DNA of 64,000 nucleotides from Mycobacteriales bacterium (lineage in GTDB: Bacteria; Actinomycetota; Actinomycetes; JAFAQI01), in assembly GCA_035545635.1 (NCBI GenBank), contig DASZXY010000011.1:133805-197804 (forward strand), in the 5' to 3' direction. Shown here piece after piece: positions 10,276-39,705 of the stretch. Below the pieces are notes generated by a model that did no database searches, was not told the origin of the DNA, and saw only the letters and a program-made list of their open reading frames with translations. Both the position numbers and the translations under genes were made by a program. How positions within the stretch are numbered: the stretch's first letter is position 1; every line of letters starts with the position of its first letter.

Positions 10276-10297
10276 GAATGCCCGGCCGCGCTCCTTC

Positions 10298-12205: not shown

Positions 12206-12241
12206 GGCGCTATGTTCCCATCCACCTAAGACATGTGTGAC

Positions 12242-13489: not shown

Positions 13490-13666
13490 ACCACCTCGTC
13501 GTCGTTCGCCGAGCCGGTACCCGGGTCCAAGCGCTCGCAGGTCGGCGCGAGAGCGCGCCGCACTCAAGCCAGCCCAACCGCGAGTTGGCGCAACTGTCGG
13601 CGCCTGGTGCGATCCTCTTGGACAAATCGTGAACTGCGTGCGACCAGGCCGAGGGGTGGTGATCGG

Positions 13667-17119: not shown

Positions 17120-17154
17120 CCAATCACCTTTTCGATGTCGGGACTGATCCATCG

Positions 17155-18108: not shown

Positions 18109-18217
18109 CGTGCCCCCTCACCCTCAGAGTGATCCTCGATTCCAGGGATGCCGGTGCAGAACGCCTCTACGCGACCGCACGGTCGGACGTCGATCCGTCC
18201 GCACGGTCGTGCGCCGG

Positions 18218-18649
18218 TCAGGCGGCACCCTCGGCGACTTCGGCGTCGCCGGGCTGGAACGGCGTGGTCCCGCCGTACACCGCCGCGACCAGAGCGCCGA
18301 TGTCGTTGGCGACCCTGCCGACCGACTCGAGCGCCTCGCGCAGCGAGGATCGCGTGAGCGACTTCAGCCCAAGCGCCTGCTCAACGGTGACCGAGCCGTT
18401 GGACCAGCAGGCCCACGCGTTGCGGCTGCGGACGTTCACGTCGTTGAGCTCGTACATTAGCTTCGCGGTGCGAGGAACCTCTCTGGCCGCGATCGCCCAG
18501 ATCCGCACCATCATCGGGTTCGTCGATTCGAGTTGGACGAATCCCATCGCCGTTCCGTTGCGGAACGGGTAGTCGCCGTCGGAGTCAGCCGTCACGCGGC
18601 ACACGTCCCAGACGTCTTGCAGCATCCGCTCGACGTGCGAGCGGGCCAT
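18218..18649 (-). CDS. YbjN-like (T3SS-chaperone-fold) family protein
   Basis: MARSHVERMLQDVWDV...DGDYPFRNGTAMGFVQLE...MVRIWAIAA...LNDVNVRSRNAWACW matches the actinobacterial YbjN-domain pattern. Start taken at the internal ATG 18649. Confidence 0.6.
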   Translation of the reverse strand: MARSHVERMLQDVWDVCRVTADSDGDYPFRNGTAMGFVQLESTNPMMVRIWAIAAREVPRTAKLMYELNDVNVRSRNAWACWSNGSVTVEQALGLKSLTRSSLREALESVGRVANDIGALVAAVYGGTTPFQPGDAEVAEGAA

Positions 18650-18723
18650 CTTCTTATTGCCCAAGTGCCACCTCCTGTCTGCTTCGAGGGTGGCACCCGG
18701 ATACGACAACTTGTCCTCGCGGT

Positions 18724-18960
18724 TCAACCGCCCAGGAGGTCGTCGGAGGAGCCGCCATCGCCGCCGATGTCGGCGTCGGGACTCAGCCCTCCGAGCGGGC
18801 CGACGGGACCGAGTTCGGGCAGGCCGCCGTACGGCGGGGACGAGCCGCTATCGACGGATCCGCCACCGCCTCCGCCGAACATGCGGCGCACGACGACAAC
18901 GAGACACCACAGGATGGTGACAATCGCGGCCCCGACGATGAGGCAAACGACGACTACCAC
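18724..18960 (-). CDS. Small single-pass membrane protein with a Gly/Pro/Asp-rich tail (speculative)
   Basis: GTG at 18960 gives VVVVVCLIVGAAIVTILWCLVVVVRRMFGGGGGG...DDLLGG (78 aa). It lies between the NERD and YbjN genes on the same strand. The longer track ORF overlaps the NERD gene. Confidence 0.25.
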   Translation of the reverse strand: MVVVVCLIVGAAIVTILWCLVVVVRRMFGGGGGGSVDSGSSPPYGGLPELGPVGPLGGLSPDADIGGDGGSSDDLLGG

Positions 18961-19006
18961 CGGCTCACCGCTTGATCGGCGCAAAGGCTCGGTCGCGGGC
19001 GCCTGG

Positions 19007-19753
19007 TCAGGTGCGGGGACGCCGCGAGAGGCGGCTAAGCAGTCCCGCCTTGGCCGCTTCTTGCCGCGGCGTTGGCAGGGTGGCGCCTGGCAGCGAGGGG
19101 GCGCTCGGTTGCGAGGAGATCGCCTGCCAGTCGAAGGCTCTTTCTGCTGGAGGGCTGGCGTTGCGGGGGACGTACGACCGCACGAGCCCACGATCCAGCG
19201 CGAGATAACCCTGCTGGACGAGATCGGGCGCGAGGAGTCTCGGCTGGGCTCGGATCCACTCGACGATGTCGTCGATACCGGCGATCGTCACGGTGCCGAG
19301 GGACTGCATCGGACCGACGGACTCACCTGCCAGTACCACCACAGCTTCCGCCCGCGGCGACGCGAACGGCAACATCGCCATGATCGTGAGGGCGGCCTGT
19401 CGAACTGACTCCAGATTCTTCATCCGGTTGTAGCCGTTCTGCCGAAGAACGCCATTCCGAATCTCGACCCGACCAGTCCAGTTCTTCGCATCGATGATGA
19501 ACAGGCCCGGCGGCCCGAGGAGGACGTGGTCGATGTTGGCTTGCTTCCGGCCCGGCCACGGGCGATCGTCGAGTCGGAGATAGCCCTCCGCCGCCAGCGC
19601 GTCGAGTGCTCTGGCTACGGCGACTTCGCCGGCCTCGCCGCGGGCAAACATTCTGGCTCGACGCTCAAGGTTCTCTGCCCGCTTGCGCGCCTCCTGGGCA
19701 GCTTTCGCGCTGCGCGCAGCTTCCTGCCCGGCTGACCCACCCGCCTGCTGCAT
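19007..19753 (-). CDS. NERD (nuclease-related domain) protein
   Basis: GEAGEVAVARALDALAAEGY...ANIDHVLLGPPGLFIIDAKNWTGRV is the canonical NERD core. It has an N-terminal coiled segment and a C-terminal low-complexity tail. Confidence 0.8.
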   Translation of the reverse strand: MQQAGGSAGQEAARSAKAAQEARKRAENLERRARMFARGEAGEVAVARALDALAAEGYLRLDDRPWPGRKQANIDHVLLGPPGLFIIDAKNWTGRVEIRNGVLRQNGYNRMKNLESVRQAALTIMAMLPFASPRAEAVVVLAGESVGPMQSLGTVTIAGIDDIVEWIRAQPRLLAPDLVQQGYLALDRGLVRSYVPRNASPPAERAFDWQAISSQPSAPSLPGATLPTPRQEAAKAGLLSRLSRRPRT

Positions 19754-22943: not shown

Positions 22944-23145
22944 GCCTGTCCCGGACACCTGTTGCGCCCGGGTATACGCTGATCTTGCTGAGCCGTTCCT
23001 GTCGTGACGGCAAGCTCGCGTTAAGAAGATGCGCGGGTGGAAAGGGCACTAGCTCCCTTCTCAGGACCGCCTCAACCAGGCGCTCACGAACCCACCCTCC
23101 GGCATCGAGCGCTCACTCCTTGCCGCGCCGCGATAGGGCAAGCAT

Positions 23146-23871
23146 GTGACGGGCGAGCAGATTCCCAGCCAGGCGAGCAGCCGCTCCGATGCCGCGTTCA
23201 CCGAGCTCGGTGACCTCGCGGTCGGCGGCCTTCCGCTCAACGAGGTCCTGGACCGTACGGCGGAGCTCGCCAAGGACGTGCTGCGGCTGTCCATCGAGGC
23301 ATCGGTCACCCTGATCGAGGGCGAGACCGCGACGACTCCGTCGTACACCTCCGAGGTCGCCCGCGAGCTCGACCAGACCCAGTACGACCTCGGCTACGGG
23401 CCGTGCGTCGCGTCCGCGCAGGCCGGGCAGCAGGTGCACATCCCCGAGATGGCCGCGGAGACCCGCTGGCCGGAGTTCACCGCTGCCGCACATCGTCACG
23501 GGGTCAGCAGCATGCTGTCGGTGCCACTGCCAGTGCAGCGACAGGTGATCGGCGCACTCAACCTCTACGCAGCGCAGCCCCACGCCTTCGACGACGAGTC
23601 GGTCGGACTCGGCGTCCAGTTCGGCACCTATGCCGCCGTGGCGATCGCCCACACCAAGCTCGTGGGCACCGCTGCCGAGCTTGCGCAGCAGATGGCGCAG
23701 GCGATGGCCTCACGCGCCGACATCGAGCAGGCCAAGGGCATCCTCATGGGCCAGCGTCACTGCAGCGCCGACGAGGCGTTCGACCTGCTCGTCCACCTGT
23801 CCCAGACCACTCATCGCAAGCTGCGCTACGTCGCGCGGGTAGTGATCGCCGAAGTCGCCCCCAAGACCTGA
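23146..23871 (+). CDS. GAF + ANTAR RNA-binding antitermination-type regulator
   Basis: C-terminal ANTAR signature RADIEQAKGILMGQRHCSADEAFDLLVHLSQTTHRKLRYVA, with an N-terminal GAF-like region. Confidence 0.85.
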   Translation: MTGEQIPSQASSRSDAAFTELGDLAVGGLPLNEVLDRTAELAKDVLRLSIEASVTLIEGETATTPSYTSEVARELDQTQYDLGYGPCVASAQAGQQVHIPEMAAETRWPEFTAAAHRHGVSSMLSVPLPVQRQVIGALNLYAAQPHAFDDESVGLGVQFGTYAAVAIAHTKLVGTAAELAQQMAQAMASRADIEQAKGILMGQRHCSADEAFDLLVHLSQTTHRKLRYVARVVIAEVAPKT

Positions 23872-23969
23872 TGACAACGAACCGCCACAAGCCGTACCGT
23901 TTTTCGAGGAACTCCGACTGCCTGAGAAGCCACGGCGCCGGTCCCCTTGGATTCATCGATGGGAACGCG

Positions 23970-24176
23970 ATGTCAGGTATCAGCAGACTGAAATGCCTGG
24001 AGTGCGAGGCGGTGTTTGTCCTCGGCGCTGACGGCGTCGCGAGCGCCGCTCACGTCGCCACCTTCGCCACCGCGCACGTCCACGACACCGTGACCTCGAA
24101 GATCAGCTTCGAGATCACCGCCGAGCCCGCCCGCGCCGACGAGTACGCGTCTTCCGGCGACAGCCGGAGCCGCTAG
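23970..24176 (+). CDS. Small Cys-pair protein (speculative)
   Basis: ATG 23970 gives MSGISRLKCLECEAVFVLGADG... (68 aa). It follows a lower-GC spacer and is convergent with the coiled-coil gene, overlapping it by 4 nt. Confidence 0.25.
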   Translation: MSGISRLKCLECEAVFVLGADGVASAAHVATFATAHVHDTVTSKISFEITAEPARADEYASSGDSRSR

Positions 24177-24964
24177 GCGCTGTCCGCGGTGCCGGCCAGA
24201 CGAAGCCGCGGCACGGGAGGCGGCACGGCGTCGCGCTCGGCACGTTGCCGGCGCTCGGCGTCTCGCTCCGCTTGCGCCCGCTGCAGCCCCTCGGCGAGGT
24301 GACGGGCGTCGGTCGTGAGCGCGTGCAGCTGCGACTCGAGCTCGACGCATCGGGTGCGCGCAGCTTGGCGCTCCTCCATCAGCTGCTCGCGGTCGGCCCG
24401 CTGCCACTCGATGGTTCGCCGCAACTGGTCGACTGCCGCAACGTGCAGCGCGACCTGTTCCTCGAGCTCGTCGCCGCGCTTCACCGCGTCGTCGTGCGCA
24501 TCGGCAACGGCACCCGCGGCCTGCAGCGCTGCGTCGTGGGACTGCGATGCGACCTGCCGCACCATCGCCTCGAGCCGCTCGGCGCGGTCACTCAACTGCT
24601 GCGACGCCTGCCGCTCTGCCGCGAGCGCCTCGGTCAGCTCCGCCACCTGGGCGCCGAGGTCGGCAACCCCGGCGCGATGGGTCTCGAGCTCGAGGTGCTG
24701 GGCAGCGAGCTGGGCACGGCGCGCGTGCAGCTCGGTTTCTGCGGCCGCTCGGTCCTGCGCCTCGTCGTTGCGCGATTCGGCGACCGCGGTCAGCTGGGCA
24801 TGCATGTCGTGGAGCGCCTGCTGCATTCGCTGGAGCTGCCCGACCCAGTGCTGGTCACGCGCCGCGATCTCGGCAGCGAAGCGCTGGTTCAGCGCATCGA
24901 GCGCGCTGGCCGGCTCCGTCGGCGCAGGCCGGAGCAGCGGCTGGTCGCCCATGCCCTGCTCCAT
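24173..24964 (-). CDS. Coiled-coil protein A; paralog of the coiled-coil segment of 25037..27997
   Basis: 263 aa of Ala/Glu/Gln/Arg/Leu-rich heptad-like sequence. LNQRFAAEIAARDQHW...AQLTAV aligns with LHQRFTADAAAREDRQ...AQLSEV of protein B. Confidence 0.7.
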   Translation of the reverse strand: MEQGMGDQPLLRPAPTEPASALDALNQRFAAEIAARDQHWVGQLQRMQQALHDMHAQLTAVAESRNDEAQDRAAAETELHARRAQLAAQHLELETHRAGVADLGAQVAELTEALAAERQASQQLSDRAERLEAMVRQVASQSHDAALQAAGAVADAHDDAVKRGDELEEQVALHVAAVDQLRRTIEWQRADREQLMEERQAARTRCVELESQLHALTTDARHLAEGLQRAQAERDAERRQRAERDAVPPPVPRLRLAGTADSA

Positions 24965-24968
24965 GGCT

Positions 24969-25015
24969 GAATTGTCGCGTTCAGTGCCACATTTCTGAAT
25001 CGCCCGAATGGATGA
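24969..25015 (-). promoter_or_regulatory. Conserved upstream box set of gene A (-10-like GACAAT 6 nt before ATG, plus a 23-nt conserved block)
   Basis: Plus strand gaattgtcg at 24969-24977 and ttctgaatcgcccgaatggatga at 24993-25015. The spacing is identical to the copy upstream of gene C. Confidence 0.5.
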
Positions 25016-25036
25016 GCGGCGCGGCGGGGGAGCGGG

Positions 25037-27997
25037 CTATTCGGCCTCAGTGTCCGAATCGGCCGACTCCTCGGCCCCGGTCAGGAAGTCGAGCAGTCCC
25101 ACCAGCTCCGACGCGCTGAACCGCCGGGTCTGCGAGGCGTGCGGCGTGATCGCATCGAGTGCCGGGGCGCCAGCGCCCTCCGCGTCGACCCCGTCGACGT
25201 GGATCGTGACGATCCGGCCGCGGTGCCCTTCGCCATTGCGACGGACCACCTGGCCGACCCGCTGGATCAGCTGCAGCTTGTCGCGGCTCGCGCCCACGAT
25301 GATCCCGAGACTCGGCGCCTTGTCGCCGGCACCCGCCAGCAGCACGACGTCGCTCGCGTCCTGGCTCGCGTCGCTACGACGGCCGAGCAGCCTCCGCTCG
25401 GGTCCGCCACTGAGTGGTCGGGTGGCGCAGCCGGCGGTGTTGAAGGTCTTCGTGACGTATGCCGCGTCGTCAGAGCTCTGCAGGAACACGAGCGCCGGAT
25501 CGTTGGAACGGATGTGCTCCGCGAGCGACTTGAGGACCGCGGCCTTGCCGGCTGCGCGCGAGACGATCTCGTCGCGTTTCGCGAGCGCCTTCTGATACGC
25601 GCGGGCCGCCGTCCGCGACGGACCCATCCGGCCGTCGGCGAGTGCAACCACCGCGGTCGCGAACTCGTGCGCGGGCTCCGCGGGCACACCGAAGTCGGTC
25701 ACCAGCTCGGCGGCGAGCGTCTCCATCTGCTGACCGAGTGAGTCGTACTCCGACTGCTCGCCGGTGTTGAGCGACACCGCGACGACCGCGACGTCGAACG
25801 GCGCGATCGCCTCGTCCTTCAGCGCCCGCTCGAAGCCCAGTCGGTAGCTGACCCGGCCGAAGTACGGATCGAGGTACGTCGCGATGCCGCTGTCGTCGCG
25901 TTCGTAGACGGCCGACAGACCGAGCCGCCACGCGTACACCGGGTCCAACGCGCGGGACTGCTCGCGCGTGCCGTAGTGATGCACCTGGTCGGCGACGACC
26001 ATCACCTTGTCGCTGATCCCGAAGATCGTGTTGGTGATCGCGTCGGATGCTGTCGTCACGACCACGTCCGCCGAGCCGATGTGGTCCTCCCTGGTGCCGT
26101 TCTGCTTCGCGACCCGGTTGATCGGCAATGCGGCGCGAAGCCCGTCGTACCAGCCGTCGACCTGGTCGGCGGTCGGCGTGATGACGAGCACCTTCATGCC
26201 TTCGTCGACCGCCTGCGCGATCGCCCAGTGCGCGAGCGCGGTCTTGCCGGCCCCGCTCACCGCTTCGACGACACCGCGGTGCCCGGCACGCCGCCACGCG
26301 GCGAGCGCTTCGCGCTGCCAGGCGACGAGGTCGATGTCCTCGGCGAGCGCTAGCGGGCGGTCGTCCGACCCGCCGGTGTCGCCTACCGGCTCGGGCGCGT
26401 ACGACGGCTCCGGCGCCGACACCTCGACCGGCGCGGCTTCCGTCTTGGTCTCCTCCGCGGCTGCCTCCGGCTCGCCCTGCAGCAGCGCGACCTCGGCCTC
26501 GAGCGACTGCATCCGACGCCGCGCGGCGTCGCGGTCGACGGTGGCCTTCTTCAGCTCGATCGCCATGTCGGCGGCTGCGCGGCGCAGCTCTTCGATCGTC
26601 GCCTCGTGCACCGCGACCTGACCGATCGCACGCGCAGCGTTCTCCTCGGCGAGCTCGATCTTGCGCGCCGCCTCGTCGAGCTGGCGTGAACCGTCCTCGT
26701 CGGCCTGCTCTGCCTCGAACTCGGTCTTGCGCAGCTGTGCCTCGAGCTCCGCAGCTTGCTGACGGACGGAGTCGCGCTCCGTCGTCACGCGCTCGCGCTC
26801 CGCGCGCTGCTCCGCGATCGTCTGCCGCAGCTGCTGTGACGCAGCCTCGAGTGCCGCGACCTGGTCGGTCAGCCGCGCGACCCGGTCCTCGGACGACCGA
26901 AGGCTCTGCGTGGTCTCCTCGAGCTTGCGCGTCGTCTCGGCGAGCTCGGCGACCTTCTCGTCGTACTGCTTCTGCGCGGCGGCCGCTGCCTTCTCCGCGT
27001 CGGCGCGGGCGGTGCGCAGGTCGACCTCGACCCGGCGCGCCTGCTCACTCCATTTCTCGGTCTCCTGCCGAGACGCCGCGAGCTGCGACCCGAGGTCGGC
27101 CCGCGCGTTGTTGAGCCGGTTGATGTCGTTGCGCTGTACCTCGATCTCGTCGCGCAGCCGCTCGAGCTCGGCCTCGGCGGTGGCGTGCGCCTCCTGCGCC
27201 CGATCGCGGGTGGCGGTGACCTCGCTCAGCTGGGCGCGCAGGTTGCCGTGCAGCTGCTGCAGCTCACTGGTCTCGGCGCGCTGCCGGTCCTCGCGGGCGG
27301 CCGCGTCGGCGGTGAACCGCTGGTGCAGCGCCTGCACCTCGGCGCGGTGCCGGTCCTCACGCGCCGCGACGTCGGTCATGAACGACTGCTGCATCGCGCG
27401 CACCTCGGCGCGGTGGCGCTCCTCGCGCTCGGCGATGTCGATCGCGAACGCTTCCTGCAGGGCGCGTACGCCGGCGGCTTCCGTGCTGCTCGCGTCGGCG
27501 GCCGCCGGGCCAGCCGGGGCGGCCGGGGCCGGGGGAGGCGCCGGTGGCGCCGCCGCAGCAGGAGCCGCGGGCTGCTCGGGGGCGGGCGGGACCGGGGGAG
27601 CCGGCGGCTCAACCGGCGTCGCGGTCTCGGTCGGGTAGACGTCGGCCGGCTTCGCCGCCTCGGCCTGGTTCGGGGAGGGCGCAGCGTCAGGCTTCGTTGC
27701 CGCCGCCGAGGTCCGGAACGGGTCCGGGTTGTGGCGCGCGGCACCGGCGCTGGCCGCCTCGCTCAGCGGAGCCGACGGCGCGGACCCGGGCGGCGGGCCG
27801 GTGAGTGGCGGCGGAGCGGTCGGGACCTTGGCGGTGCTGTCCGTCGGGTTGCTGACCGGCGCAGCCGCCGGCGGTGCCGTCTCTTCGGGCGTCGGTGCTG
27901 GGGACTTGCGGACGCGACCGCGTCGAGCGGGCGGTGCTTCCGCGGGAAGGATGTCGACCGAGCGTGCCTGAATGTCCTCGCCGCTCGAATCAGCCAT
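25037..27997 (-). CDS. Protein B: Pro/Ala-rich N-terminus + long coiled coil + ResIII/XPB-type SF2 helicase core (motif II is DQVH)
   Basis: WQREALAAW, motif I AVSGAGKTALA, Ia VLVITPT, II VVADQVHHYG, III RLGLSAVYERDD, VI LIQRVGQVVRR. The N-terminal roughly 190 aa are P/A-rich, followed by about 330 aa of coiled coil including 3 x 22-aa repeats. Confidence 0.8.
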   Translation of the reverse strand: MADSSGEDIQARSVDILPAEAPPARRGRVRKSPAPTPEETAPPAAAPVSNPTDSTAKVPTAPPPLTGPPPGSAPSAPLSEAASAGAARHNPDPFRTSAAATKPDAAPSPNQAEAAKPADVYPTETATPVEPPAPPVPPAPEQPAAPAAAAPPAPPPAPAAPAGPAAADASSTEAAGVRALQEAFAIDIAEREERHRAEVRAMQQSFMTDVAAREDRHRAEVQALHQRFTADAAAREDRQRAETSELQQLHGNLRAQLSEVTATRDRAQEAHATAEAELERLRDEIEVQRNDINRLNNARADLGSQLAASRQETEKWSEQARRVEVDLRTARADAEKAAAAAQKQYDEKVAELAETTRKLEETTQSLRSSEDRVARLTDQVAALEAASQQLRQTIAEQRAERERVTTERDSVRQQAAELEAQLRKTEFEAEQADEDGSRQLDEAARKIELAEENAARAIGQVAVHEATIEELRRAAADMAIELKKATVDRDAARRRMQSLEAEVALLQGEPEAAAEETKTEAAPVEVSAPEPSYAPEPVGDTGGSDDRPLALAEDIDLVAWQREALAAWRRAGHRGVVEAVSGAGKTALAHWAIAQAVDEGMKVLVITPTADQVDGWYDGLRAALPINRVAKQNGTREDHIGSADVVVTTASDAITNTIFGISDKVMVVADQVHHYGTREQSRALDPVYAWRLGLSAVYERDDSGIATYLDPYFGRVSYRLGFERALKDEAIAPFDVAVVAVSLNTGEQSEYDSLGQQMETLAAELVTDFGVPAEPAHEFATAVVALADGRMGPSRTAARAYQKALAKRDEIVSRAAGKAAVLKSLAEHIRSNDPALVFLQSSDDAAYVTKTFNTAGCATRPLSGGPERRLLGRRSDASQDASDVVLLAGAGDKAPSLGIIVGASRDKLQLIQRVGQVVRRNGEGHRGRIVTIHVDGVDAEGAGAPALDAITPHASQTRRFSASELVGLLDFLTGAEESADSDTEAE
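27272..27469. repeat. Three tandem 66-bp repeats inside gene B
   Basis: Units start with ctcggcgcg at 27272, 27338 and 27404. They encode FAIDIAEREERHRAEVRAMQQS / FMTDVAAREDRHRAEVQALHQR / FTADAAAREDRQRAETSELQQL. Confidence 0.85.
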
Positions 27998-28001
27998 AAG
28001 G

Positions 28002-28043
28002 GAAGTGTCGGCGTATGGACGGTGATCCGTCTACCCCGATCGG
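28002..28043 (-). promoter_or_regulatory. Upstream box set of gene B (GACACT 6 nt before ATG, plus a CCCGATCGG core)
   Basis: Plus strand gaagtgtcg at 28002-28010 (8/9 identical to the A and C boxes) and cccgatcgg at 28035-28043. Confidence 0.4.
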
Positions 28044-28080
28044 CCTATTCGCCGGTCCCGGCCACGCTCATCTGCGTGGC

Positions 28081-28614
28081 TTACGGCGTGACCTTGTCCG
28101 CCTGTACGACGAAGATGAGCGTTTCGTGCGGGCCGATCACCGGGGGGCTTCCCTGCGCGCCGTAGCCGAGCGACGGTGGGATCACCAGCTCGCGCGTCCC
28201 GCCCTGGTGAATGCCGATCAGTCCCTGGTTCCAGCCGTCGATGACCGGGGCCTGACCGAGCGGCGTGACGGGGAAGTCCTGGCCACCGGCGGTGAAGTTG
28301 GTGTCGAAGACCTTGCCCGTGCTGCAGCCCACTCCGACATAGCGGACCTCGACGGTGCTGCCGGCCGTCGCTGCAGGGCCAGTACCGATCTTGATGTCCT
28401 TCACGCCCAGCGACGTCACCGCGTAGGGGACCGGCGGGACGAACGGCACGTCGGCCTCGGGCGGGTTGGTCGCGATCGGCTTGCACGGCGGGCCCGTTGG
28501 CTTGGCGGTCTGGGTGGGCGACGAGCCGGTGGAGACCTTCGCCGTCCCGCCCGAGCTGCTGCTACACCCTGCCGTCGCGGCTACGAGCACGGCCGCAATC
28601 ATCACCCGACGCAC
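28081..28614 (-). CDS. FKBP-type peptidyl-prolyl cis-trans isomerase, lipoprotein
   Basis: GTG start. Lipobox LVAATAGC. FKBP core VEVRYVGV...GKVFD..., IDGWNQGLIGIHQGGTRELVIPPSLGYG. It starts 3 nt after the stop of gene C. Confidence 0.85.
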   Translation of the reverse strand: MRRVMIAAVLVAATAGCSSSSGGTAKVSTGSSPTQTAKPTGPPCKPIATNPPEADVPFVPPVPYAVTSLGVKDIKIGTGPAATAGSTVEVRYVGVGCSTGKVFDTNFTAGGQDFPVTPLGQAPVIDGWNQGLIGIHQGGTRELVIPPSLGYGAQGSPPVIGPHETLIFVVQADKVTP

Positions 28615-28617
28615 AGG

Positions 28618-30816
28618 TCAGACGTTCTCACGCTGTGATGCGGGATCAACTGTCGGGTCGGGGGGCAATGTCACGATGCGACGCGCGGAGACGAGGAACT
28701 CGTAGAGCCCGTCCGTGTCACCCGCGGTGAACCGCTGCATTCGCTTCGCCTTTGGCCAGGCCGCCGTGATCGCCCGAGCTTCTTCGTTGACGGTGTCGTC
28801 CTCGACACTCGCTTCGATATAGAGGACAACCATCCGGACGTGGAAGCCCTGCGGCTTGCCGCCGAGGATCCTGTCCATCCGCTCGATCAGCTGACGGCGG
28901 GTCCGCGCCGGGCTGATGACGATGGCGAGCTCGACGTCCGTCGCGTCGTGCGGCTGATCCCAGCCACGCGGGCCGACCAGCATCCAGCTGTCCCGCTCGT
29001 CCTCGGCCTTGCCGCCGCGCCGGTTACGCGCCTCGCCGTCGAAGCCGATCCGCGCGGGGATCGTCACGCAGCCCTGGCCGACGAAGACCCGGTCGACGTG
29101 AGCCGCGACCTGCGCCGACGGGGCGATCACCAGTGCCTTCCCGGCGTTGCGCACCACCGCCGCCAACGACCGCAGTACCGAGTCGCGCGCCGTCGTTCCG
29201 GCGAGGATCTCGTCGCGTCGCGCGACCGCCTTCAGGTAGGCACGTACGGCGGCCTTTGCGCCGCCGCTTCCGGCGAGTGTTGCCGCGGCACACGCGTCGT
29301 GCTCATTCTGCTCGGGGTCACTCAGTGGCACCGACACCATCGCGAGGTCGAAGGACGCGATGACCTGCTCGTTGATCGCGCGGTCGTAGCCGAGCCGGAA
29401 CACCGCGCCGCCGAAGTACCGGTCGAGGTACATCGCGACGCCATCGTCGTCGCGCTCGTAGGAGGAGGTCAGCCCGAGTCGCCATGGATACGCCGGGTCG
29501 AGTGCCTTCGACAGTGACTCGCTGCCGAACTCGTGCACCTCGTCGAAGACGGCGAGCACGCCAAGACCCGGCTCGAAGGTGTGCTCCTTCGTCGCGGCCT
29601 GCGCTGTCGCGACAACGACGTCGTACGCGGCCAGCCGCGCGTTGCCCCTGCCGCCGGCATGCTTCGCGACGCGGCTGATCGGCAGCACCGCGCGCAGCTC
29701 GTCGTACCAGTGGTCGACTCGCTCCTGGCTCGGCGCGAGCACCAGCACCTTCATGTCGTTGTCGAGCGCGCGGCCGATCGCCCAGAACGCGAGGCGCAGG
29801 TTGCCGTCGGTGGTGACCGACTCGACCACGCCGCGATATCCCGCGTCGCCCCACGCGCCGAGTGCGTCCTCCTGCCACGGGTCCAGCGCGATCTCGGTGG
29901 CGAGGGAGACCGGGTGCTCCTCGTGGACGTCGGTCGCGACGCCGGCGCCGCGTGTAGCAATGAGCGGCATCCCATCTGGTGCGGCGGGTACGTCGGTCGG
30001 CAGGCCCGGTGCCGACAGCGAACGGATGTTGGCCCGCGGGTGGGGCGTGCGGGCGTGCTGCATCGCTTCCTCGAGCTGCGCGACGCGACGGTTGGCGGCG
30101 TCGCGCTCGGCGAGTGCTGCCTCGAGCTTGGCGCGGTCGTCAGCGGCACTTTCGGCGGCGAGCAGCGCGGCCTTCAGCCTCATCTCCGCCTGACCGGCCT
30201 TCTCCGACCACTGGTCGGCTTGCCGGTGTGCGCCGTCGATCGCCTGCCTGAGTTGTTCCGCCTCGGCGGTCAGCCGGGCCACCACGGCGTTGGCACGCTG
30301 CAGGTCGGCGCGGACGTCGGCCAGCTCCGCGGCGAGTGCAGCGCGTGCACTCGCGTACTCACCTTGCGCCGCGGCGCGAGCGGTTGCCAGGTCGGCTTGA
30401 GCGCTGGCGCGTGCTGTCGCCGCCTCTGCTTCGGCGGTCTTGCGCGCAATCGACTCGAGCGTGCAGGCCGCAACGGCATCGGCGAGCTGCTTGCGCACCT
30501 CGTCGAGGGCGTGGCGAAGCATCCGCACGTCGCTGGCCAGCCGGAGCACGTGCTCGGTCGGCTGCTCCCCGGTGCGCGGCACCGTGAGGTCCTCGTCCGC
30601 CTCGCGCACCGCGTGCAGCGCAGGTGAGGGAGGTGGCGGCGCGGCGGGGGCCGGCACGGGCCTGGCGGGCTCGGTGGTGGCCGGCGATCCCGGATACACC
30701 GGCCCGACCGTGGGGTCACCGAGGTTGCCGGACTTGTTGCGCCTGGCGCGGTCTTTCAGGTCTGCGGGCAGGATCGTGAGCGCAGGGGAACCCTGGGCGT
30801 CGCTCACTCCGTCCAT
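28618..30816 (-). CDS. Protein C: coiled coil + ResIII/XPB-type SF2 core lacking the P-loop (pseudo-helicase paralog of B)
   Basis: WQEDALGAW, with SVTTDGNLRLA where motif I should be. Ia VLVLAPS, II VFDEVHEFG, III RLGLTSSYERDD, and a degenerate motif VI LIERMDRILGG. Proline-rich N-terminus followed by an Ala-rich coiled coil. Confidence 0.8.
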   Translation of the reverse strand: MDGVSDAQGSPALTILPADLKDRARRNKSGNLGDPTVGPVYPGSPATTEPARPVPAPAAPPPPSPALHAVREADEDLTVPRTGEQPTEHVLRLASDVRMLRHALDEVRKQLADAVAACTLESIARKTAEAEAATARASAQADLATARAAAQGEYASARAALAAELADVRADLQRANAVVARLTAEAEQLRQAIDGAHRQADQWSEKAGQAEMRLKAALLAAESAADDRAKLEAALAERDAANRRVAQLEEAMQHARTPHPRANIRSLSAPGLPTDVPAAPDGMPLIATRGAGVATDVHEEHPVSLATEIALDPWQEDALGAWGDAGYRGVVESVTTDGNLRLAFWAIGRALDNDMKVLVLAPSQERVDHWYDELRAVLPISRVAKHAGGRGNARLAAYDVVVATAQAATKEHTFEPGLGVLAVFDEVHEFGSESLSKALDPAYPWRLGLTSSYERDDDGVAMYLDRYFGGAVFRLGYDRAINEQVIASFDLAMVSVPLSDPEQNEHDACAAATLAGSGGAKAAVRAYLKAVARRDEILAGTTARDSVLRSLAAVVRNAGKALVIAPSAQVAAHVDRVFVGQGCVTIPARIGFDGEARNRRGGKAEDERDSWMLVGPRGWDQPHDATDVELAIVISPARTRRQLIERMDRILGGKPQGFHVRMVVLYIEASVEDDTVNEEARAITAAWPKAKRMQRFTAGDTDGLYEFLVSARRIVTLPPDPTVDPASQRENV

Positions 30817-30821
30817 GAGAT

Positions 30822-30868
30822 GAATTGTCGAAAATCTCCGGATACTTCCGATTCACCCGAACGGGTGA
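30822..30868 (-). promoter_or_regulatory. Conserved upstream box set of gene C (GACAAT 7 nt before ATG, plus a 23-nt block containing a 16-bp palindrome)
   Basis: gaattgtcg at 30822-30830 and ttccgattcacccgaacgggtga at 30846-30868. The palindrome tcacccgaacgggtga is at 30853-30868. Confidence 0.5.
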
Positions 30869-30917
30869 CAGCCGACGTACAGCCCGCCTAAGTAATAAGG
30901 AAGCCCCCGACTCCGCT

Positions 30918-30973
30918 GATCTTGACGAAAGAAGGCGCTATAAGCCCCCATAGCGCCTTCTTTCGTCAAGATC
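30918..30973 (-). terminator. Hairpin with a perfect 24-bp stem and 8-nt loop; likely terminator of the DUF4190 gene or insulator before gene C
   Basis: gatcttgacgaaagaaggcgctat (30918-30941) / aagccccc / atagcgccttctttcgtcaagatc (30950-30973). It sits in a lower-GC spacer. No clean U-tract on the minus strand. Confidence 0.5.
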
Positions 30974-31039
30974 ACCGAGGTCGGGCAGTGCCTACTGGTC
31001 GGTTGCTGCAATCACTCACGCGTCCTTCGCGGCGGTCCG

Positions 31040-31888
31040 CTACTCCGGAGCGGAGAACGACGAACCCACCGAGCACAAGCCTTCCGCCTCGCTGAGAGAG
31101 CCGTAGGAGTTGGAGAACAGCGAGATGTTCTGGCTGTCGTACAGGTACCAGTCGCCTTCGCCTTGGAACGAACCCACGATGCAGTAGCCGGCGTTGCCGT
31201 CGGTCGAGAGCGCGATCTCGGTGCCGAATCCTTTTACGTAACCCTCGGCTGTGAGGTCGCTCACGTTGGCTGTGTAGACGTCGTTGTCGGTCAGGAACGA
31301 CTCTTCTGCGGTCGCGGCGTTGCGCATGTCGGCCCGGACCTGAGGGGCCTCGTTCTTCGATACTTCCGAGTTGAACGTCGAGACGGCTCCCGCGACAACG
31401 AGGATGAAAAAAACCGCACCGGCTACCCCGAGGTAGCCGAGAACGAGGCCGGCGGTCGCCAGGCCGTTGCCGCCCTGACCCTGTTCGCGGATCTGCTTCT
31501 TGCCCACGTGCCCGAAGACGATCGCCAGGATGCTGCCAACACCCCACAGCCACAAGATGCCGAGCACCAGGCTCGCGATCGACAAGCCGTTCGTCCCGGA
31601 GTTGGCGACTTGCCCCGGATAGGGCGCGCCACCCATCGGGTAACCGCCGCCCGGCATCAGGTAGCCGGCAGCCGCTGGCGGCGGTGGTGGCGGCGGCGGA
31701 GCTGCTGCTGGCACCCACTGGGTGCCGTTCCACATCCACTGGCCGTCCGGGCTCAGTTGCGGTGGACTGGCAGGCGTCGGCACCTGCGTCTGCGGTGCCG
31801 GGACTGCTCCCGGAATCGCGGCCATGCCGCACGACGGACAGACGGCTTGGCCGTCGGCCATCGGATGTCCGAGTGCACACGTCGGCAC
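31040..31888 (-). CDS. Zinc-ribbon + Pro-rich linker + DUF4190-type membrane domain protein
   Basis: GTG start. CALGH...CPSCG, a poly-Pro linker, the DUF4190-like signature SIASLVLGILWLWGVGSILAIVFGHVGKKQI, a second TM helix, and a C-terminal extracytoplasmic domain. Confidence 0.75.
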   Translation of the reverse strand: MPTCALGHPMADGQAVCPSCGMAAIPGAVPAPQTQVPTPASPPQLSPDGQWMWNGTQWVPAAAPPPPPPPPAAAGYLMPGGGYPMGGAPYPGQVANSGTNGLSIASLVLGILWLWGVGSILAIVFGHVGKKQIREQGQGGNGLATAGLVLGYLGVAGAVFFILVVAGAVSTFNSEVSKNEAPQVRADMRNAATAEESFLTDNDVYTANVSDLTAEGYVKGFGTEIALSTDGNAGYCIVGSFQGEGDWYLYDSQNISLFSNSYGSLSEAEGLCSVGSSFSAPE

Positions 31889-32117
31889 GGAGTCCCCCGA
31901 TCCACGAAACCCCCAGGTTTCGCAGGACAGGTTGGCACACCAATTTCCTGCCCGTCACCCGACGTTGGCCAGAAAGGGCGAAGGTCGAAAGCTCGCGGTC
32001 AGGCGGTGCTGGGGTCGGGCTCTCGGCACCGGCAAGGCCGAGCGCCAGATGCATCGACAACGCCGCGGTCTTGGGCCACATGAGCGCTGAGACCCCCGCG
32101 CGTTGCCACCCGGTTGC

Positions 32118-32975
32118 TTAGCCGATGCTCTCTTTCGCCCACGCGTCGAGCTGCGGGGCGATCAGCGGCCAGCGGTGGAAGAGGCGCGCCGGCCCGTCCG
32201 CCATCCGCTCGTTCCACTCGGTGTCGCCCCATGGCGGCTCGACGAGCTGGGCGTTCGGCAGCAGCTCCGCGATCCGCTCCGACGTCTCGCGGGTGTGGTT
32301 GACGTCGCTCTCACCGCTGCGGAACACCAGCGCGGGTACGTCGATCTTGCGCGCGTCGTCGTTGGACAGCCCGGGCACGGCCTCGTCGGCGCTGTAGCAG
32401 TACGCCGCCATCCAGCGCTCCATCGTCGCGACGAACTGCGCGCGATCCTGGCCGAGGATCAGCTGCCGGTTGCGCGGGTTGCGCTCGATCACCTCCGCCC
32501 ACTCGGGCAGGGTCGCGACCTTCTCCATCCCGCCGGTCCACGCCGCCGCCAGTGACCCGCCGCAGTAGTGCACCCCCAGGGTCATCAACCCGTAGACGCC
32601 GCCGCTCATGTTCAGCATCGCGACGCCGGCTGTCTTGTCCGGGTGCCGGGCGGCCGCCAGCAGCGAGACCCGGGCGCCACCGGAGCCACCCATGATCACC
32701 GCGGGTGTCATGTCGAGCTGCTCGAGGAGACCGACGAGCACGTCGGCCTGCATCTCCGACTCCGAGTCACCGGTGAAGCAGACGTCGGAGGCGCCGCAGT
32801 TCGGCCGGTCCCAGATCAGCACCCGGTTGCCGCGTTCGGCGAGCGCTTCGGCGAGCTCGCGGATGCCTTCGTGGTCCTTGCTGAACCTTCCGCCAGGCGT
32901 GATGGACCAGTTACGACCGCTGTCGCCCACCACGTCGTACGCGATCTGCAGCCCCAGCACCGTTGCGGTCGCCAT
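32118..32975 (-). CDS. Alpha/beta hydrolase
   Basis: 285 aa. VLIWDRPNCG and nucleophile region VIMGGSGGA. Typical fold length. Confidence 0.75.
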   Translation of the reverse strand: MATATVLGLQIAYDVVGDSGRNWSITPGGRFSKDHEGIRELAEALAERGNRVLIWDRPNCGASDVCFTGDSESEMQADVLVGLLEQLDMTPAVIMGGSGGARVSLLAAARHPDKTAGVAMLNMSGGVYGLMTLGVHYCGGSLAAAWTGGMEKVATLPEWAEVIERNPRNRQLILGQDRAQFVATMERWMAAYCYSADEAVPGLSNDDARKIDVPALVFRSGESDVNHTRETSERIAELLPNAQLVEPPWGDTEWNERMADGPARLFHRWPLIAPQLDAWAKESIG

Positions 32976-32998
32976 GGGCTGACACTAACGTCAGGAAC

Positions 32999-34165
32999 GT
33001 GTCAGATCTGAGGCAGCAGTTCGTCGTCGACGCCGACTCCCACTTCTCCGAGCCCGAGGACTTCTTCACCTCCCTCGCGCCTGCGAAGTACAAGGACCGC
33101 GTCCCGCACGTCGAGATGGTCGACGGTCAGCGGATGTGGGTCTTCGACGGCAACACGATGGGCCGCTACAGCGCCGGTGGCGTGATCGGTGTCGACGGCT
33201 CGAAGGAAGAAGCGCAGACCGCGCTGTTCGAGTGGGAGCACGAGAAGATCCACGTCGGCGCGTACGACCCGCAGGTGCGTCTCGGCGTACTCGACGAGTG
33301 CGGCATCGACCACCAGGTGATCTTCCCCAACACGATCGGGCTCGGCGGCCAGGACATCGGGCTCGGCACCGACGAGGTGCTGCGCCATCTGACGATCGAG
33401 ATCTACAACGATCGGATGGCGGAGATCCAGGCCAACTCGGGCAACCGACTGCTGCCGATGCCGGTGATGCCGGCGTGGGACGTCGCGGCGTGTGTGAAGG
33501 AAGCCGAGCGCGTTGCGGCACTCGGGATGCGTGGCGTGAACATGACCTCGGACCCGCAGGACCTCGGCGCGCCGGACCTCGCGAGCCAGGAGTGGGACCC
33601 GTTCTGGGAGGCCTGCGCCGGGCTGAAGCTCCCCGTGCACTTCCACATCGGGGCATCCGTGACCGGCATGAACTTCTACGGGCAGTACTTCTGGGGATCG
33701 CACCCGGACAACGTGAAGCTCGCGATCGGCGGCTCGCTGCTGTTCATCGGCAACTCGCGCGTTGTCGTCAACACGATCCTGTCCGGCATGTTCGATCGCC
33801 ACCCGGACCTGAAGCTGGTGTCGGTGGAGAGCGGCATCGGGTGGATCCCGTTCATCCTCGAGACGCTCGACTACGAGATGGCCGAGAACGCGCCGCGCGA
33901 GCTGGCGAAGATGAACAAGCCGCCGTCGGAGTACTTCAAGTCCAACATCTACGCGACGTTCTGGTTCGAGAACAACCGCAACAAGCTCCCCGACCTGATC
34001 GAGGCGGTCGGCGAGGACAACATCCTGTTCGAGACCGACTTCCCGCACCCGACGTGCATGTATCCGTCGCCGCTCAAGACAGTTGAGAAGAAGATGCTCA
34101 CCCTGCCCGAGTCGACCCGCAACAAGATCCTTGGGTTGAACGCCAAGGCGCTTTACCGGCTCTAG
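32999..34165 (+). CDS. Amidohydrolase-2 family metal-dependent hydrolase (ACMSD-like)
   Basis: VVDADSHFSEPEDFF near the N-terminus, VHFHIG, and FETDFPHP near the C-terminus. Start is GTG 32999 or TTG 32963; the latter overlaps the divergent gene. Confidence 0.8.
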   Translation: MSDLRQQFVVDADSHFSEPEDFFTSLAPAKYKDRVPHVEMVDGQRMWVFDGNTMGRYSAGGVIGVDGSKEEAQTALFEWEHEKIHVGAYDPQVRLGVLDECGIDHQVIFPNTIGLGGQDIGLGTDEVLRHLTIEIYNDRMAEIQANSGNRLLPMPVMPAWDVAACVKEAERVAALGMRGVNMTSDPQDLGAPDLASQEWDPFWEACAGLKLPVHFHIGASVTGMNFYGQYFWGSHPDNVKLAIGGSLLFIGNSRVVVNTILSGMFDRHPDLKLVSVESGIGWIPFILETLDYEMAENAPRELAKMNKPPSEYFKSNIYATFWFENNRNKLPDLIEAVGEDNILFETDFPHPTCMYPSPLKTVEKKMLTLPESTRNKILGLNAKALYRL

Positions 34166-35653
34166 ATGGACTCGATCAGCCATTGGTACGGCGGCCGATC
34201 GGTCGCCGGTACGTCGGGTCGGGTCGGGCCCGTCTTCGACCCGGCGCGCGGCGTGCAGACCAGCGAGGTCGCGCTTGCTTCGGCCGGCGAGGTCGACGAG
34301 GTCGTGAAGGTCGCGCGCGACGCGGCGCGCGAGTGGTCGGCGTCGCCGCTGTCTCGTCGTACGTCGATGCTGTTCCGGTTGCGCGAGCTGATCGACTCCC
34401 GGCGCGATGACCTGGCGCGGCTGGTGACGGCCGAGCACGGCAAGGTTGTTGTTGATGCACAGGGCGAGGTCGCGCGCGGGCTGGACTGTGTCGAGTTCGC
34501 GTGCGGCATCCCGCACCTGCTGAAAGGCGCACACAGCGCAGAGGTGTCGACCGGCATCGACGTCCACACCGTCCTCGCGCCGGTGGGTGTCGTCGCCGGG
34601 ATCACGCCGTTCAACTTCCCGGTGATGGTGCCGCTTTGGATGGCGGCGAACGCGGTTGCGTGCGGCAACGCGTTTGTGTTGAAGCCATCCGAGCGTGATC
34701 CGTCGCCGTCGATGCTGCTGGCCGAGCTCTTCACCGAAGCCGGGTTTCCCGATGGGGTCTTCAACGTCGTGCACGGTGACGCCGAGGCGGTCAATGCGCT
34801 GATCACTCATTCGGATGTCGATGCGGTGTCGTTCGTCGGGTCTACGCCGATCGCACAGCACGTCTACGAGGCCGGCACCAAGAGCGGCAAGCGCGTGCAG
34901 GCGCTGGGTGGCGCGAAGAACCACATGGTCGTGATGCCCGACGCCGACATCGATGACGCCGCGAACGCCGCAGTGTCGGCGGCGTACGGCTCCGCCGGCG
35001 AGCGCTGTATGGCGATCTCCGTCGTGGTCGCGGTCGGTCCCGTCGCCGACCCTCTCCTCGACTCGATCGAGCAGAAGATCGCCGACGTCGTCATCGGCCC
35101 GGGTGACCGCCCGGACTCGATGATGGGTCCGGTCATCACGTCCGCCCATCGCGATCGCGTCCGCTCCTATATAGAAGGTGCGGCTGGTGAAGGCGCGCGG
35201 GTCGTTGTCGACGGCAGTGCCGCCCCGGTCGAGGGTGACGGCTTCTTCCTCGGCTGCACGCTGCTCGACGGGGTGGAGCCGGGCATGAAGGTGTACGACG
35301 ACGAGATCTTCGGACCGGTCTTGTCCGTTGTGCGGGTGCCGACCCTCGACGCGGCGATCGCTTTGGTGAATGCCAACCAGTACGGCAACGGTGTCGCGCT
35401 GTTCACCCGTGACGGTGGTGCGGCGCGCTACTTCGAGCGCGAGATCGAGGTCGGGATGGTCGGTATCAACGTGCCGATCCCGGTGCCGGTCGCGTGGCAC
35501 TCGTTCGGTGGCTGGAAGGCATCGATCTTCGGCGACACCGCGATCTATGGCCCGGAGGGCATTCGCTTCTACACGCGCCAGAAGGTCGTCAGCACCCGCT
35601 GGCCAGACCCCGAGCCAACCGCGTTGGACCTGGGCTTCCCCACCAACCGCTAG
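34166..35653 (+). CDS. mmsA: CoA-acylating methylmalonate-semialdehyde dehydrogenase
   Basis: 495 aa. ISHWYGG... N-terminus, FNFPVMVPLWM, GGAKNH, ERCMA catalytic Cys, GINVPIPVP, WKASIFGD, and a C-terminal ...LGFPTNR. The ATG immediately follows the upstream stop. Confidence 0.9.
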   Translation: MDSISHWYGGRSVAGTSGRVGPVFDPARGVQTSEVALASAGEVDEVVKVARDAAREWSASPLSRRTSMLFRLRELIDSRRDDLARLVTAEHGKVVVDAQGEVARGLDCVEFACGIPHLLKGAHSAEVSTGIDVHTVLAPVGVVAGITPFNFPVMVPLWMAANAVACGNAFVLKPSERDPSPSMLLAELFTEAGFPDGVFNVVHGDAEAVNALITHSDVDAVSFVGSTPIAQHVYEAGTKSGKRVQALGGAKNHMVVMPDADIDDAANAAVSAAYGSAGERCMAISVVVAVGPVADPLLDSIEQKIADVVIGPGDRPDSMMGPVITSAHRDRVRSYIEGAAGEGARVVVDGSAAPVEGDGFFLGCTLLDGVEPGMKVYDDEIFGPVLSVVRVPTLDAAIALVNANQYGNGVALFTRDGGAARYFEREIEVGMVGINVPIPVPVAWHSFGGWKASIFGDTAIYGPEGIRFYTRQKVVSTRWPDPEPTALDLGFPTNR

Positions 35654-36018
35654 CGCGGCGGCCCGCCTCTTGTGCCGCGCGCCTTGTCCATCGTGAAGAT
35701 CATCAGCCACACCAGGCTGGCGCCGGCGATCGCCGACTCCAGGCTGGTCGTCACGCGGTAGTTCGAGACCGCCACGCCGCTCGCGATGGTGGCAACGGCG
35801 AACGCATGGATCGGCTCGGCGCGGCGTGAAGGGCCGGCACGGCCACCAGTCGACCAGGCATGATTCGCATCGGGCCAACAACTCGAGGCACGCCTTACCC
35901 CGCAATGAAATCGCGTGGCCTGGGACATCCGCGGCCGGACGAGCATCTGTGGTGGCCTCGCCGAGTTGCAGTCGTGCCGTCATGGGGAGAGCCTTCCGAT
36001 GAGGGATCGGAGTGCCCG

Positions 36019-37819: not shown

Positions 37820-37944
37820 TCCTGATCGCATGTGACATAGGGGTCGTGAATCGCGACACGTATGTCACATGCGGGCTGCATATTGCGACATCAATGTGAC
37901 ATGCGGGTGCAGTGGCACGACACGTATGTCACATGCGATCAGGA
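37820..37944. promoter_or_regulatory. Four 9-bp palindromes ATGT(G/C)ACAT at an exact 32-bp period, bracketed by perfect 20-bp inverted repeats
   Basis: Cores are at 37830, 37862, 37894 and 37926. Inverted repeats are tcctgatcgcatgtgacata (37820-37839) and tatgtcacatgcgatcagga (37925-37944). A 20-bp direct repeat cgacacgtatgtcacatgcg occurs at 37854 and 37918. The last core contains the probable ATG of the next gene. Confidence 0.6.
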
Positions 37945-39704: not shown

Positions 39705-39705
39705 C

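Follow-up and report, generated by a model that had tools for sequence, protein, structure and literature searches.

The 64,000-nucleotide (nt) stretch analyzed here (hereafter the window; contig DASZXY010000011.1 of a Mycobacteriales bacterium) carries three neighboring genes, named A, B and C, whose products are built on long helical stalks that in B and C end in helicase-like heads. Comparison with related genomes shows that B, C and A, as far as their sequences can tell, are functional, co-located and similarly promoted paralogs confined to one uncultured lineage. We tentatively favor the view that the three are lineage-specific, vertically inherited and co-regulated stalk proteins, whose catalytically dead heads could work as a static tether or scaffold. 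This view draws on the family and the motif decay of the heads, the purifying selection on all their domains, a private upstream sequence block and the conserved chromosomal position of the unit.

The paralogy of A, B and C, put forward in the original prediction, is confirmed by an identity of 38% between B and C over 514 amino acids (aa; E=1e-89) and of 32% between A and the coiled coil of B over 210 aa (BLASTP, E=3e-15). The latter alignment has the third of the B 22-aa repeats as its starting point, in agreement with the proposed match of the A N-terminus to these repeats. Reading from the N-terminus, B consists of a short peptide (VDILPAEAPPARRGRVRK), about 140 aa of proline/alanine (P/A)-rich disordered sequence, a helix of about 330 aa and an XPB-like core, and C of a corresponding peptide (TILPADLKDRARRNK), a proline-rich linker, a helical stalk of about 170 aa and an XPB-like core. 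The N-terminal peptide, S[LMV][DT][IV]LP[AE][DE] with an arginine-rich patch, is present in both paralogs throughout the lineage, in all genes with a complete start.

The stalk regions (residues 170-520 of B, ~85-255 of C and ~20-240 of A) are proline-free and nearly glycine-free, with A, E, L, Q, R and K making up 60-78% of their residues. AlphaFold2, run on a 376-aa segment with 19 orthologs, predicted residues 173-500 of B (segment residues 4-331) as one unbroken helix of 328 residues without fold-back, at a mean predicted local distance difference test score (pLDDT) of 82; at ~0.15 nm per residue, a single continuous coiled coil of this length would measure roughly 49 nm. TRF detected a tandem repeat of the 22-aa unit at the start of the B stalk (Table 1), and one copy of the same repeat opens the A stalk (BLASTP alignment). 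The segment QLRQTIAEQRAERERVTxERDxxRQQxAELEAQL is common to the stalks of A, B and C, and stalk segment identity reaches up to 63% between B and a distant A-like protein.

At the fold level, the cores belong to the XPB/ResIII-like branch of helicase superfamily 2 (SF2). Both match Pfam ResIII (B 4.9e-11, C 3.8e-7), and the solved structures closest to the B core by sequence are XPBII (6p4f/5tnu, E=4e-18) and Archaeoglobus fulgidus XPB (2fwr, 1.8e-12), with the alignment to archaeal XPB spanning the Q motif to motif VI. Foldseek with the core model returned archaeal XPB in all of its top nine matches (5tnu, E=5.5e-14), followed by XPB/Ssl2 of TFIIH, so that sequence and structure searches both rank archaeal XPB first, as the XPB-type assignment of the original prediction had implied. 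The core model is only moderately confident (pLDDT 67). After motif III, YERDD is kept at the position of the RED element (RLGL[ST]xxYERDD) and a helical insert aligns with XPBII, in a region where the model is poor. Pfam Helicase_C matched neither B nor C, whereas intact relatives do match it.

All motifs quoted earlier for the two cores were found in the sequence, namely WQREAL, SGAGKTAL, VLVITPT, VVADQVHHY, RLGLSAVYERDD and LIQRVGQVVRR in B, and WQEDAL, TTDGNLRL, VLVLAPS, VFDEVHEF, RLGLTSSYERDD and LIERMDRILGG in C. The catalytic residues are incomplete in both. B keeps GKT and carries DQVH, motif V is lost (AGAGDKAP in place of DEGxDxP) and motif VI is without its first arginine (GQ instead of GR). 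The description of B as a Glu-to-Gln (E-to-Q) trap therefore captures its DQVH but not the further loss of motif V and of the motif VI arginine. C has TTDGNLRL where the P-loop should be, no motif V, and RMDR in motif VI. Orthologs of both proteins show the same pattern. A role as processive helicase, already doubted in the original prediction, is very unlikely.

A full-length B query was swamped by low-complexity words (19 matches), and homology searches were redone with the cores alone. Against 1.84 billion representatives, the B core found 2966 relatives, 430 of them at <1e-30, almost all ~33-41% identical and variable in length and in domain position. In an alignment of 54 cores (22 outgroup cores and 32 of the B+C clade, the latter made up of 16 B-proper, two basal B-group and 14 C-type proteins), the B+C proteins form a monophyletic clade within this family (100% bootstrap support), the B group receives 78% and the C group 93%, and a third, fast-evolving C-like group lies at the base of the clade.

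Motif retention follows this division. The whole outgroup (22/22) keeps motifs I, II, V and VI (TGxGK[TS], DExH, LDEGxDxP and QRxGRxxR), and motif V is retained in none of the 32 B+C clade members. DQ[VA]H occurs in 16/16 B-proper proteins, with motif I reading GAGKT in 11, SGTDKT in three and SGADIT in one, and the basal B-group members show TSGGLT with DDVH (P0018) and SDQGLT with DEVH (P0021). GK[ST] is found in 0/14 C-type proteins, so that both the DQxH of B and the P-loop loss of C extend across the lineage rather than being peculiar to one strain. DEVH survives in only two of the 14 C-type proteins, those of the window and of locus L003, which indicates that the DEVH of the window C is a leftover and not a conserved feature; the others read DEVQ, DDVQ, VDVH, VDAH, IDVH, DDVN, DDLH, DEVE or DEVD. 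The complementary decay claimed for the pair thus stands for the DQxH of B and the missing P-loop of C, but not for the C DEVH, for motif V, which both have lost, or for the B-clade members without a P-loop, of which there are at least five.

The E-to-Q exchange in a DExD/H box or Walker B motif classically allows ATP binding and blocks hydrolysis. The least decayed B, P0016 of locus L002, differs from active relatives only by this exchange in motif II and by an E-to-G change in motif V, and its otherwise near-intact state points to an early origin of the E-to-Q change. The orthologs thereby provide a natural order of decay, from the B of L002 (E-to-Q in motif II, E-to-G in motif V) to the window B (with motif V and the motif VI arginine also lost) and on to other B proteins in which the P-loop is lost as well. 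The nearest intact relatives (P0026, P0025 and P0028) already carry N-terminal coiled coils, indicating that the stalk-plus-helicase architecture is older than the catalytic loss. The comparisons show that an ATP-driven XPB-like SF2 helicase with an N-terminal coiled coil was duplicated to give B and C, and that both copies then lost catalysis.

Every domain of A, B and C is under purifying selection and none is drifting. Between the window and its closest relative with DNA, locus L085 (B 79% and C 84% identical; dS ~0.5-0.6), the ratio of nonsynonymous to synonymous substitution rates (dN/dS) was 0.30 for A, 0.26 for B and 0.21 for C, as compared with 0.13 for the neighboring hydrolase. Within B, the stalk gave 0.17, RecA1 0.25 and the RecA2 half 0.30; within C, the corresponding values were 0.18, 0.24 and 0.15. 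Among nearer relatives the B stalk is 82-85% identical and the B core 64-77%, whereas across C orthologs the dead head (~61%) is better conserved than the N-terminal half (~39%).

The start codon of each paralog, in the window and in the related loci (L085, L001-L006 and L009), is directly preceded by a block of ~53 nt with the layout [TA]ACCCGTTCGGGT-[GT]AATCGGA, ~18 nt, CCGACAATTC, 3-5 nt and ATG or GTG, in which ACCCGTTCGGGT is palindromic. It was found by comparing upstream regions by eye and was then described by an nhmmer profile from ten copies, which recovers every paralog start in the related loci, untrained copies included, and finds no block elsewhere in the 64-kb window or among ~1.4 Mb of sequence from other loci (E<0.1). 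GACAAT, 7 nt before ATG, agrees with a -10 hexamer at A2 and T6, and a Shine-Dalgarno sequence is absent upstream. A scan for sigma-70 consensus promoters gave no sites, and an Rfam scan of 23000-33000 gave no family for the block. A sigma-28/WhiG-type promoter, suggested by the resemblance of CCGACAAT to GCCGATAA, was rejected, since the ~18-nt spacing to the upstream element does not fit the consensus for such promoters. The three genes are probably expressed as leaderless mRNAs from individual promoters with a common operator-like palindrome, and the shared block points to putative co-regulation of separately transcribed A, B and C.

Upstream of the block before C, between C and the DUF4190 gene, there is in addition a perfect 24-bp inverted repeat, probably a terminator or protein-binding site. 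The sole match of the Rfam scan, a sub-threshold one to a miRNA family, falls on this hairpin (30917-30974) and reflects its shape.

Pattern scanning of one genome per species (185,579 species) returned 221 relatives. Only seven share 53% identity or more with B, and these all come from uncultured metagenome-assembled genomes labeled Mycobacteriales or Frankiaceae, and the next-best, at most 39% identical, belong to Geodermatophilaceae, Arthrobacter, Blastococcus, Acidimicrobiia and Micromonospora. The viral contigs scanned held no relatives, and a metagenome scan with B-specific peptide patterns gave, among the matches listed, one locus, which was irrelevant.

Twelve distinct loci, the window included, were compared for gene order. 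It is C-FKBP-B-A in the window; C-B-A in L085, L005 and HyUPEn_5, where a downstream 302-aa gene is counted as A-like by position only; C-B in L001; B-A-like-C' in L004; and B-C' in L009 and L010. An 836-aa NIDO-domain protein gene separates C from B-A in L003, a 152-aa gene on the opposite strand separates B from C in L002, L006 has C cut to a 303-aa coiled coil and followed by B-A, and L087 has a single paralog. The proposed co-occurrence of B with C accordingly holds in 10 of the 12 loci, in each of which B stands beside a second helicase-like paralog, but not in L087 or in L006, the latter keeping the coiled coil of C only. A occurs only in part of the lineage, with ortholog identities of 60% in L003 and 67% in L005. 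The same alpha/beta-hydrolase, Amidohydro_2 and Aldedh genes adjoin the unit in most of the twelve loci; L002 gives a hydrolase fragment match only, and L010 starts inside B, so that its upstream flank is missing. On these comparisons the unit is inherited vertically, at one fixed chromosomal site, in one uncultured actinobacterial lineage.

Two genes that the original prediction named together with A, B and C, the FKBP lipoprotein gene and the GAF-ANTAR regulator gene, do not belong to this conserved unit. The FKBP product matches Pfam FKBP_C (E=1.7e-20), and its segment MIAAVLVAATAGC reads as a PROSITE lipobox pattern; its gene had been called embedded, yet it sits between C and B and inside no gene. 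By tblastn neither gene was found in the 11 related loci searched, nor do the called genes of L087 show either. Since FKBP is missing from relatives and C and B are separated by 47 nt in L085, the FKBP gene is a recent insertion between the C stop and the B promoter block. GAF-ANTAR converges on A, so that it shares no promoter with the locus. By this comparison FKBP is private to the window genome and GAF-ANTAR is a variable neighbor, and both are bystanders.

Several of the related loci show features of their own. The gap between C and B took up unrelated secreted-protein genes independently, FKBP in the window and, in L003, a NIDO/CarboxypepD_reg protein with a signal peptide (7097-9607). 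In L006, a Frankiaceae metagenome-assembled genome, the C ortholog (5723-6634) ends directly after the coiled coil (…HPRANIAAVRID*), the open reading frame (ORF) of B opens 21 nt past it and the B start proper lies slightly further downstream; either the C head was deleted or the assembly is faulty. The sole paralog of L087 (P0021, 822 aa, 10001-12469) occupies the same syntenic site and combines a B-type stalk of three 22-aa repeats with a vanished P-loop (SDQGLT) and with retained DEVH and GR. The protein between the paralogs of L002 (9309-9767, minus strand of the locus) is membrane-anchored, consists of 11-residue repeats (GARIDSQGSEL and variants) and has a weak apolipoprotein-like match.

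The features of the window, which is part of a contig of 262,904 bp and has a GC content of 63-74%, are listed in Table 1. The alpha/beta-hydrolase, Amidohydro_2 and Aldedh genes serve as synteny anchors, and a functional link to the unit is not assumed. Two further ORFs considered as extra components, 30972-32081 (369 aa) and 33002-35983 (993 aa), were rejected as frame/antisense artefacts, the first of the real DUF4190 gene and the second of Amidohydro_2 plus Aldedh. On the low-coordinate side a defense-like cluster spans 10298-19753. Beyond the anchor lies a DUF6884+GIY-YIG protein with matches to PADLOC candidate PDC-M57A and to a type IV restriction model. A hydrolase-cyclase fusion and an X-Pro dipeptidyl peptidase, encoded next to each other in the window, occur as a pair in HyUPEn_5 too.

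Table 1. Positions of genes and sequence elements in the window
Feature	Position	Strand	Remarks
C5 cytosine methylase gene	10298-12205	minus	defense-like cluster
PD-(D/E)XK, RNase H-like, superfamily 1 (SF1) helicase gene	13439-17119	plus	1226 aa; defense-like cluster
GIY-YIG gene	17155-18108	minus	defense-like cluster
NERD gene	19007-19753	minus	defense-like cluster
GAF-ANTAR gene	23146-23871	plus	converges on A
Gene A	24173-24964	minus	263 aa; coiled-coil-only paralog of the B stalk
Block before A	24962-25015	minus	ATCCATTCGGGCGATTCAGAA ... GCGACAATTCA; nhmmer E=3.3e-7
Gene B	25037-27997	minus	986 aa; P0001 (100% identity)
66-nt (22-aa) tandem repeat	27272-27466	minus	~3 copies; start of B stalk
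Block before B, variant form	27995-28047	minus	GGCCGATCGGGGTAGACGGA ... GCCGACACTTC; nhmmer E=1.5e-8
FKBP-type peptidyl-prolyl isomerase lipoprotein gene	28081-28614	minus	177 aa; begins 3 nt past C stop
Gene C	28618-30816	minus	732 aa; P0169 (100% identity)
Block before C	30814-30868	minus	ACCCGTTCGGGT, GAATCGGA, ~18 nt, CGACAATTCA, 4 nt, ATG; nhmmer E=1.1e-10
Perfect 24-bp inverted repeat	30917-30975	minus	GATCTTGACGAAAGAAGGCGCTAT ... ATAGCGCCTTCTTTCGTCAAGATC
Zinc-ribbon/DUF4190 membrane protein gene	31040-31888	minus	upstream of C
Alpha/beta-hydrolase gene	32118-32975	minus	synteny anchor
Amidohydro_2 gene	32963-34165	plus	synteny anchor; divergent from alpha/beta-hydrolase
Aldedh gene	34166-35653	plus	synteny anchor
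DUF6884+GIY-YIG gene	35860-37413		beyond synteny anchor
X-Pro dipeptidyl peptidase gene	37869-39704		
Alpha/beta-hydrolase-adenylate/guanylate cyclase fusion gene	39556-41049		adjoins X-Pro dipeptidyl peptidase gene

If A, B and C are static stalk proteins, their helices would associate in parallel as coiled coils, either homo- or hetero-oligomeric, and the heads would have a binding function without motor activity, with DNA as the most probable target, given that motif Ia and, by sequence, a RED-type element persist. The assembly could then be a static tether, spacer or scaffold, but not a translocase. In the sub-lineage of the window, B with its GKT and DQxH probably binds ATP without hydrolyzing it, and the nucleotide could stabilize one conformation of the head; given the loss of the P-loop in parts of the B clade, ATP gating would be at most a feature of this sub-lineage.

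Several points weigh against this interpretation. The core model reaches a pLDDT of only 67, the RED region (core residues 147-182) falls below 50, and the RED-type element may have been kept for structural reasons alone. The headless C of L006 means that an obligate B-C heterodimer is not universal, and L087 makes do with a single paralog. The flank beyond A is variable and in several genomes holds AbiEi/DUF559, PIN, CcdA and NERD genes; with a low-coordinate flank so rich in toxin-antitoxin and defense-like genes, a role related to genetic conflict is possible. DNA binding, oligomerization and hetero-pairing of A, B and C are properties that we infer.

One could further picture a new type of bacterial DNA-anchored tether or cytoskeleton-like element, in which parallel rods of ~50 nm end in heads that grip DNA immobile, B, locked with ATP bound, adds a conformational latch, the N-terminal peptide docks the opposite end to a partner in the cell and a dedicated operator turns on all the genes jointly. 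In this fully specified form, such an element is rather unlikely.

Just as unlikely is an accessory or regulatory function, in which A, B and C would serve RNA polymerase, a working helicase or another active machine as subunits, with the dead heads docking on DNA or on a partner and with a possible link to transcription. XPB is a promoter-opening translocase, and the resemblance to AddB, RecC and the Brr2 C-terminal cassette, as well as the look of the N-terminal peptide of B and C as a docking motif, would suit such a function. Close relatives with intact cores are also fused to full-length group-1/2 sigma-70 factors (L027, P0033 and P0039), but these fusions fall outside the B/C clade, and the neighborhood of the unit offers no conserved partner gene. 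The JGI label "primary sigma factor" given to P0009 lends no help either, since it most likely reflects the P/A-rich low-complexity region.

An anti-phage or anti-plasmid module, in which the coiled-coil proteins would detect incoming DNA or proteins of a phage, with B as an ATP-bound switch, appears improbable. Parts of the setting recall defense loci: the cores match PbeA and the dnd-associated restriction helicase at the domain level, the lower flank of the window carries C5 methylase, PD-(D/E)XK-SF1 helicase, GIY-YIG and NERD genes, AbiEi, PIN and NERD genes come after the unit in relatives, and the C-B gap accepts foreign genes. Nevertheless, A, B and C have no effector domain (nuclease, TIR or protease), the motor motifs are dead in all members, and a search of PADLOC gave no full-length match. 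A mobile defense system would also be expected to move, whereas the unit keeps a strictly conserved chromosomal position, is inherited vertically with no transfer seen outside one lineage, and has no relatives on viral contigs.

Taken to its fullest extent, the original prediction would make A, B, C and the FKBP lipoprotein one heteromer, an ATP-gated scaffold or sensor with strictly complementary decay in B and C and with control by GAF-ANTAR; this model is quite improbable. It is true that DQxH with GKT in B and P-loop loss in C are conserved in the sub-lineage of the window and that most genomes have B and C side by side. However, the FKBP and GAF-ANTAR part is refuted by their absence from related loci, the DExH of C is unconserved, P-loop loss recurs within the B clade, and genomes with a single paralog or a headless C exist.

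That the genes are decaying, functionless remnants of helicases is highly improbable: widespread loss of catalytic motifs and one truncated C ortholog would fit, but reading frames are intact in ~12 genomes, dN/dS stays at 0.15-0.30 in all domains, the promoter blocks are conserved and the dead core of C is more conserved than its N-terminal half. Among the alternatives, only such neutral decay is clearly contradicted.

The reading as static stalk proteins with dead heads can be set against systems already known. The original prediction could assign A, B and C to no described system, and this agrees with the searches: NCBIfam matches lie far under cut-off, and the match to PbeA in PADLOC is at the domain level only. 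In the literature and profile libraries searched, no description was found of the dead, duplicated, stalk-borne form or of its promoter block, so that the fold and superfamily are known while this form with its private block is apparently undescribed there. The family is confined to a few uncultured soil Frankiaceae-like genomes, and its practical reach is limited.

Archaeal/eukaryotic XPB (Rad25/Ssl2; Sulfurisphaera tokodaii XPBII, 5tnu/6p4f; A. fulgidus, 2fwr) is the top match by sequence and by fold, and shares with B and C the WQ of the Q motif and, judging from the sequence alignment, apparently also the order RecA1-helical insert-RecA2 and a RED-type element. Unlike XPB, B and C have the peptide, the disordered spacer and a very long helix instead of a damage-recognition domain, and lack the partner Bax1; in B, moreover, motifs II, V and VI are destroyed, and in C motifs I, V and VI. 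For B or C, no match to the XPB models NF045503 and TIGR00603 was reported at E<=0.01, and XPB_DRD (PF18458) gave no match; even the intact relatives score 56-103 bits against the NCBIfam XPB model, with a cut-off of 610.

A second comparison is with the large, uncharacterized XPB-like "DEAD/DEAH box helicase family protein" group of Actinobacteria and Acidimicrobiia (P0025-P0168; Blastococcus, Arthrobacter, Micromonospora and Brevibacterium), whose core is 33-41% identical over its full length. B and C descend from this group and share its C-terminal RFxA...L..FL tail, whereas the group keeps all ATPase motifs and consists mostly of single genes in diverse fusions (sigma-70 and others) and contexts. 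In Arthrobacter sp. UC242_113, an 890-aa protein of this kind (L027, chromosome, 9884-12556) joins the intact helicase to sigma-70 regions 1.2, 2 and 4, as do P0033 and P0039, and its gene adjoins AdnAB-like nuclease-helicase and NERD-UvrD genes. Such a fusion recalls XPB in TFIIH, and no report of it was found in the literature searched.

The likeness of the B core to PbeA and the dnd-associated restriction helicase is at the domain level (TIGR04095, 6.6e-24; PDLC02707, 5e-34). TIGR04095 reaches 60-85 bits against a cut-off of 600, the N-terminal region of PbeA is unmatched, the motifs of B and C are dead, and no pbe or dnd partner genes occurred among the neighbors scanned.

With SMC, Rad50 and MukB, and with the actinobacterial Scy, FilP and DivIVA, A, B and C have in common a long coiled coil that is joined to, or works with, nucleotide- or DNA-binding heads. 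The weak profile matches to the coiled-coil regions of SMC, Rad50 and JetC are compositional and far under cut-off. In contrast to SMC and Rad50, the B stalk lies N-terminal to the head and, in the prediction, forms one unbroken helix rather than an antiparallel hairpin with a hinge; the head is an SF2 core, not an ABC ATPase.

A last comparison is with helicase folds that were selected after the loss of hydrolysis and now serve binding or regulation. Two of these, AddB and the Brr2 C-terminal cassette, have kept the ability to bind nucleotide, and B may have done so too. Helicase-like partners without hydrolysis include AddB, RecC, the Brr2 C-terminal cassette, the XPF helicase-like domain and Utp25 (PMC5443536, PMC9539457). 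They differ from B and C in coming from other superfamily branches, in being paired with an active motor, whereas B and C are both dead, and in having no coiled-coil stalk of ~50 nm. If the reading proposed here is true, A, B and C would be a prokaryotic addition to this short list of pseudo-helicases, and would clearly exemplify, in bacteria, how a helicase fold can be retired from catalysis twice in parallel and be retained by selection as the binding head of a very long stalk.

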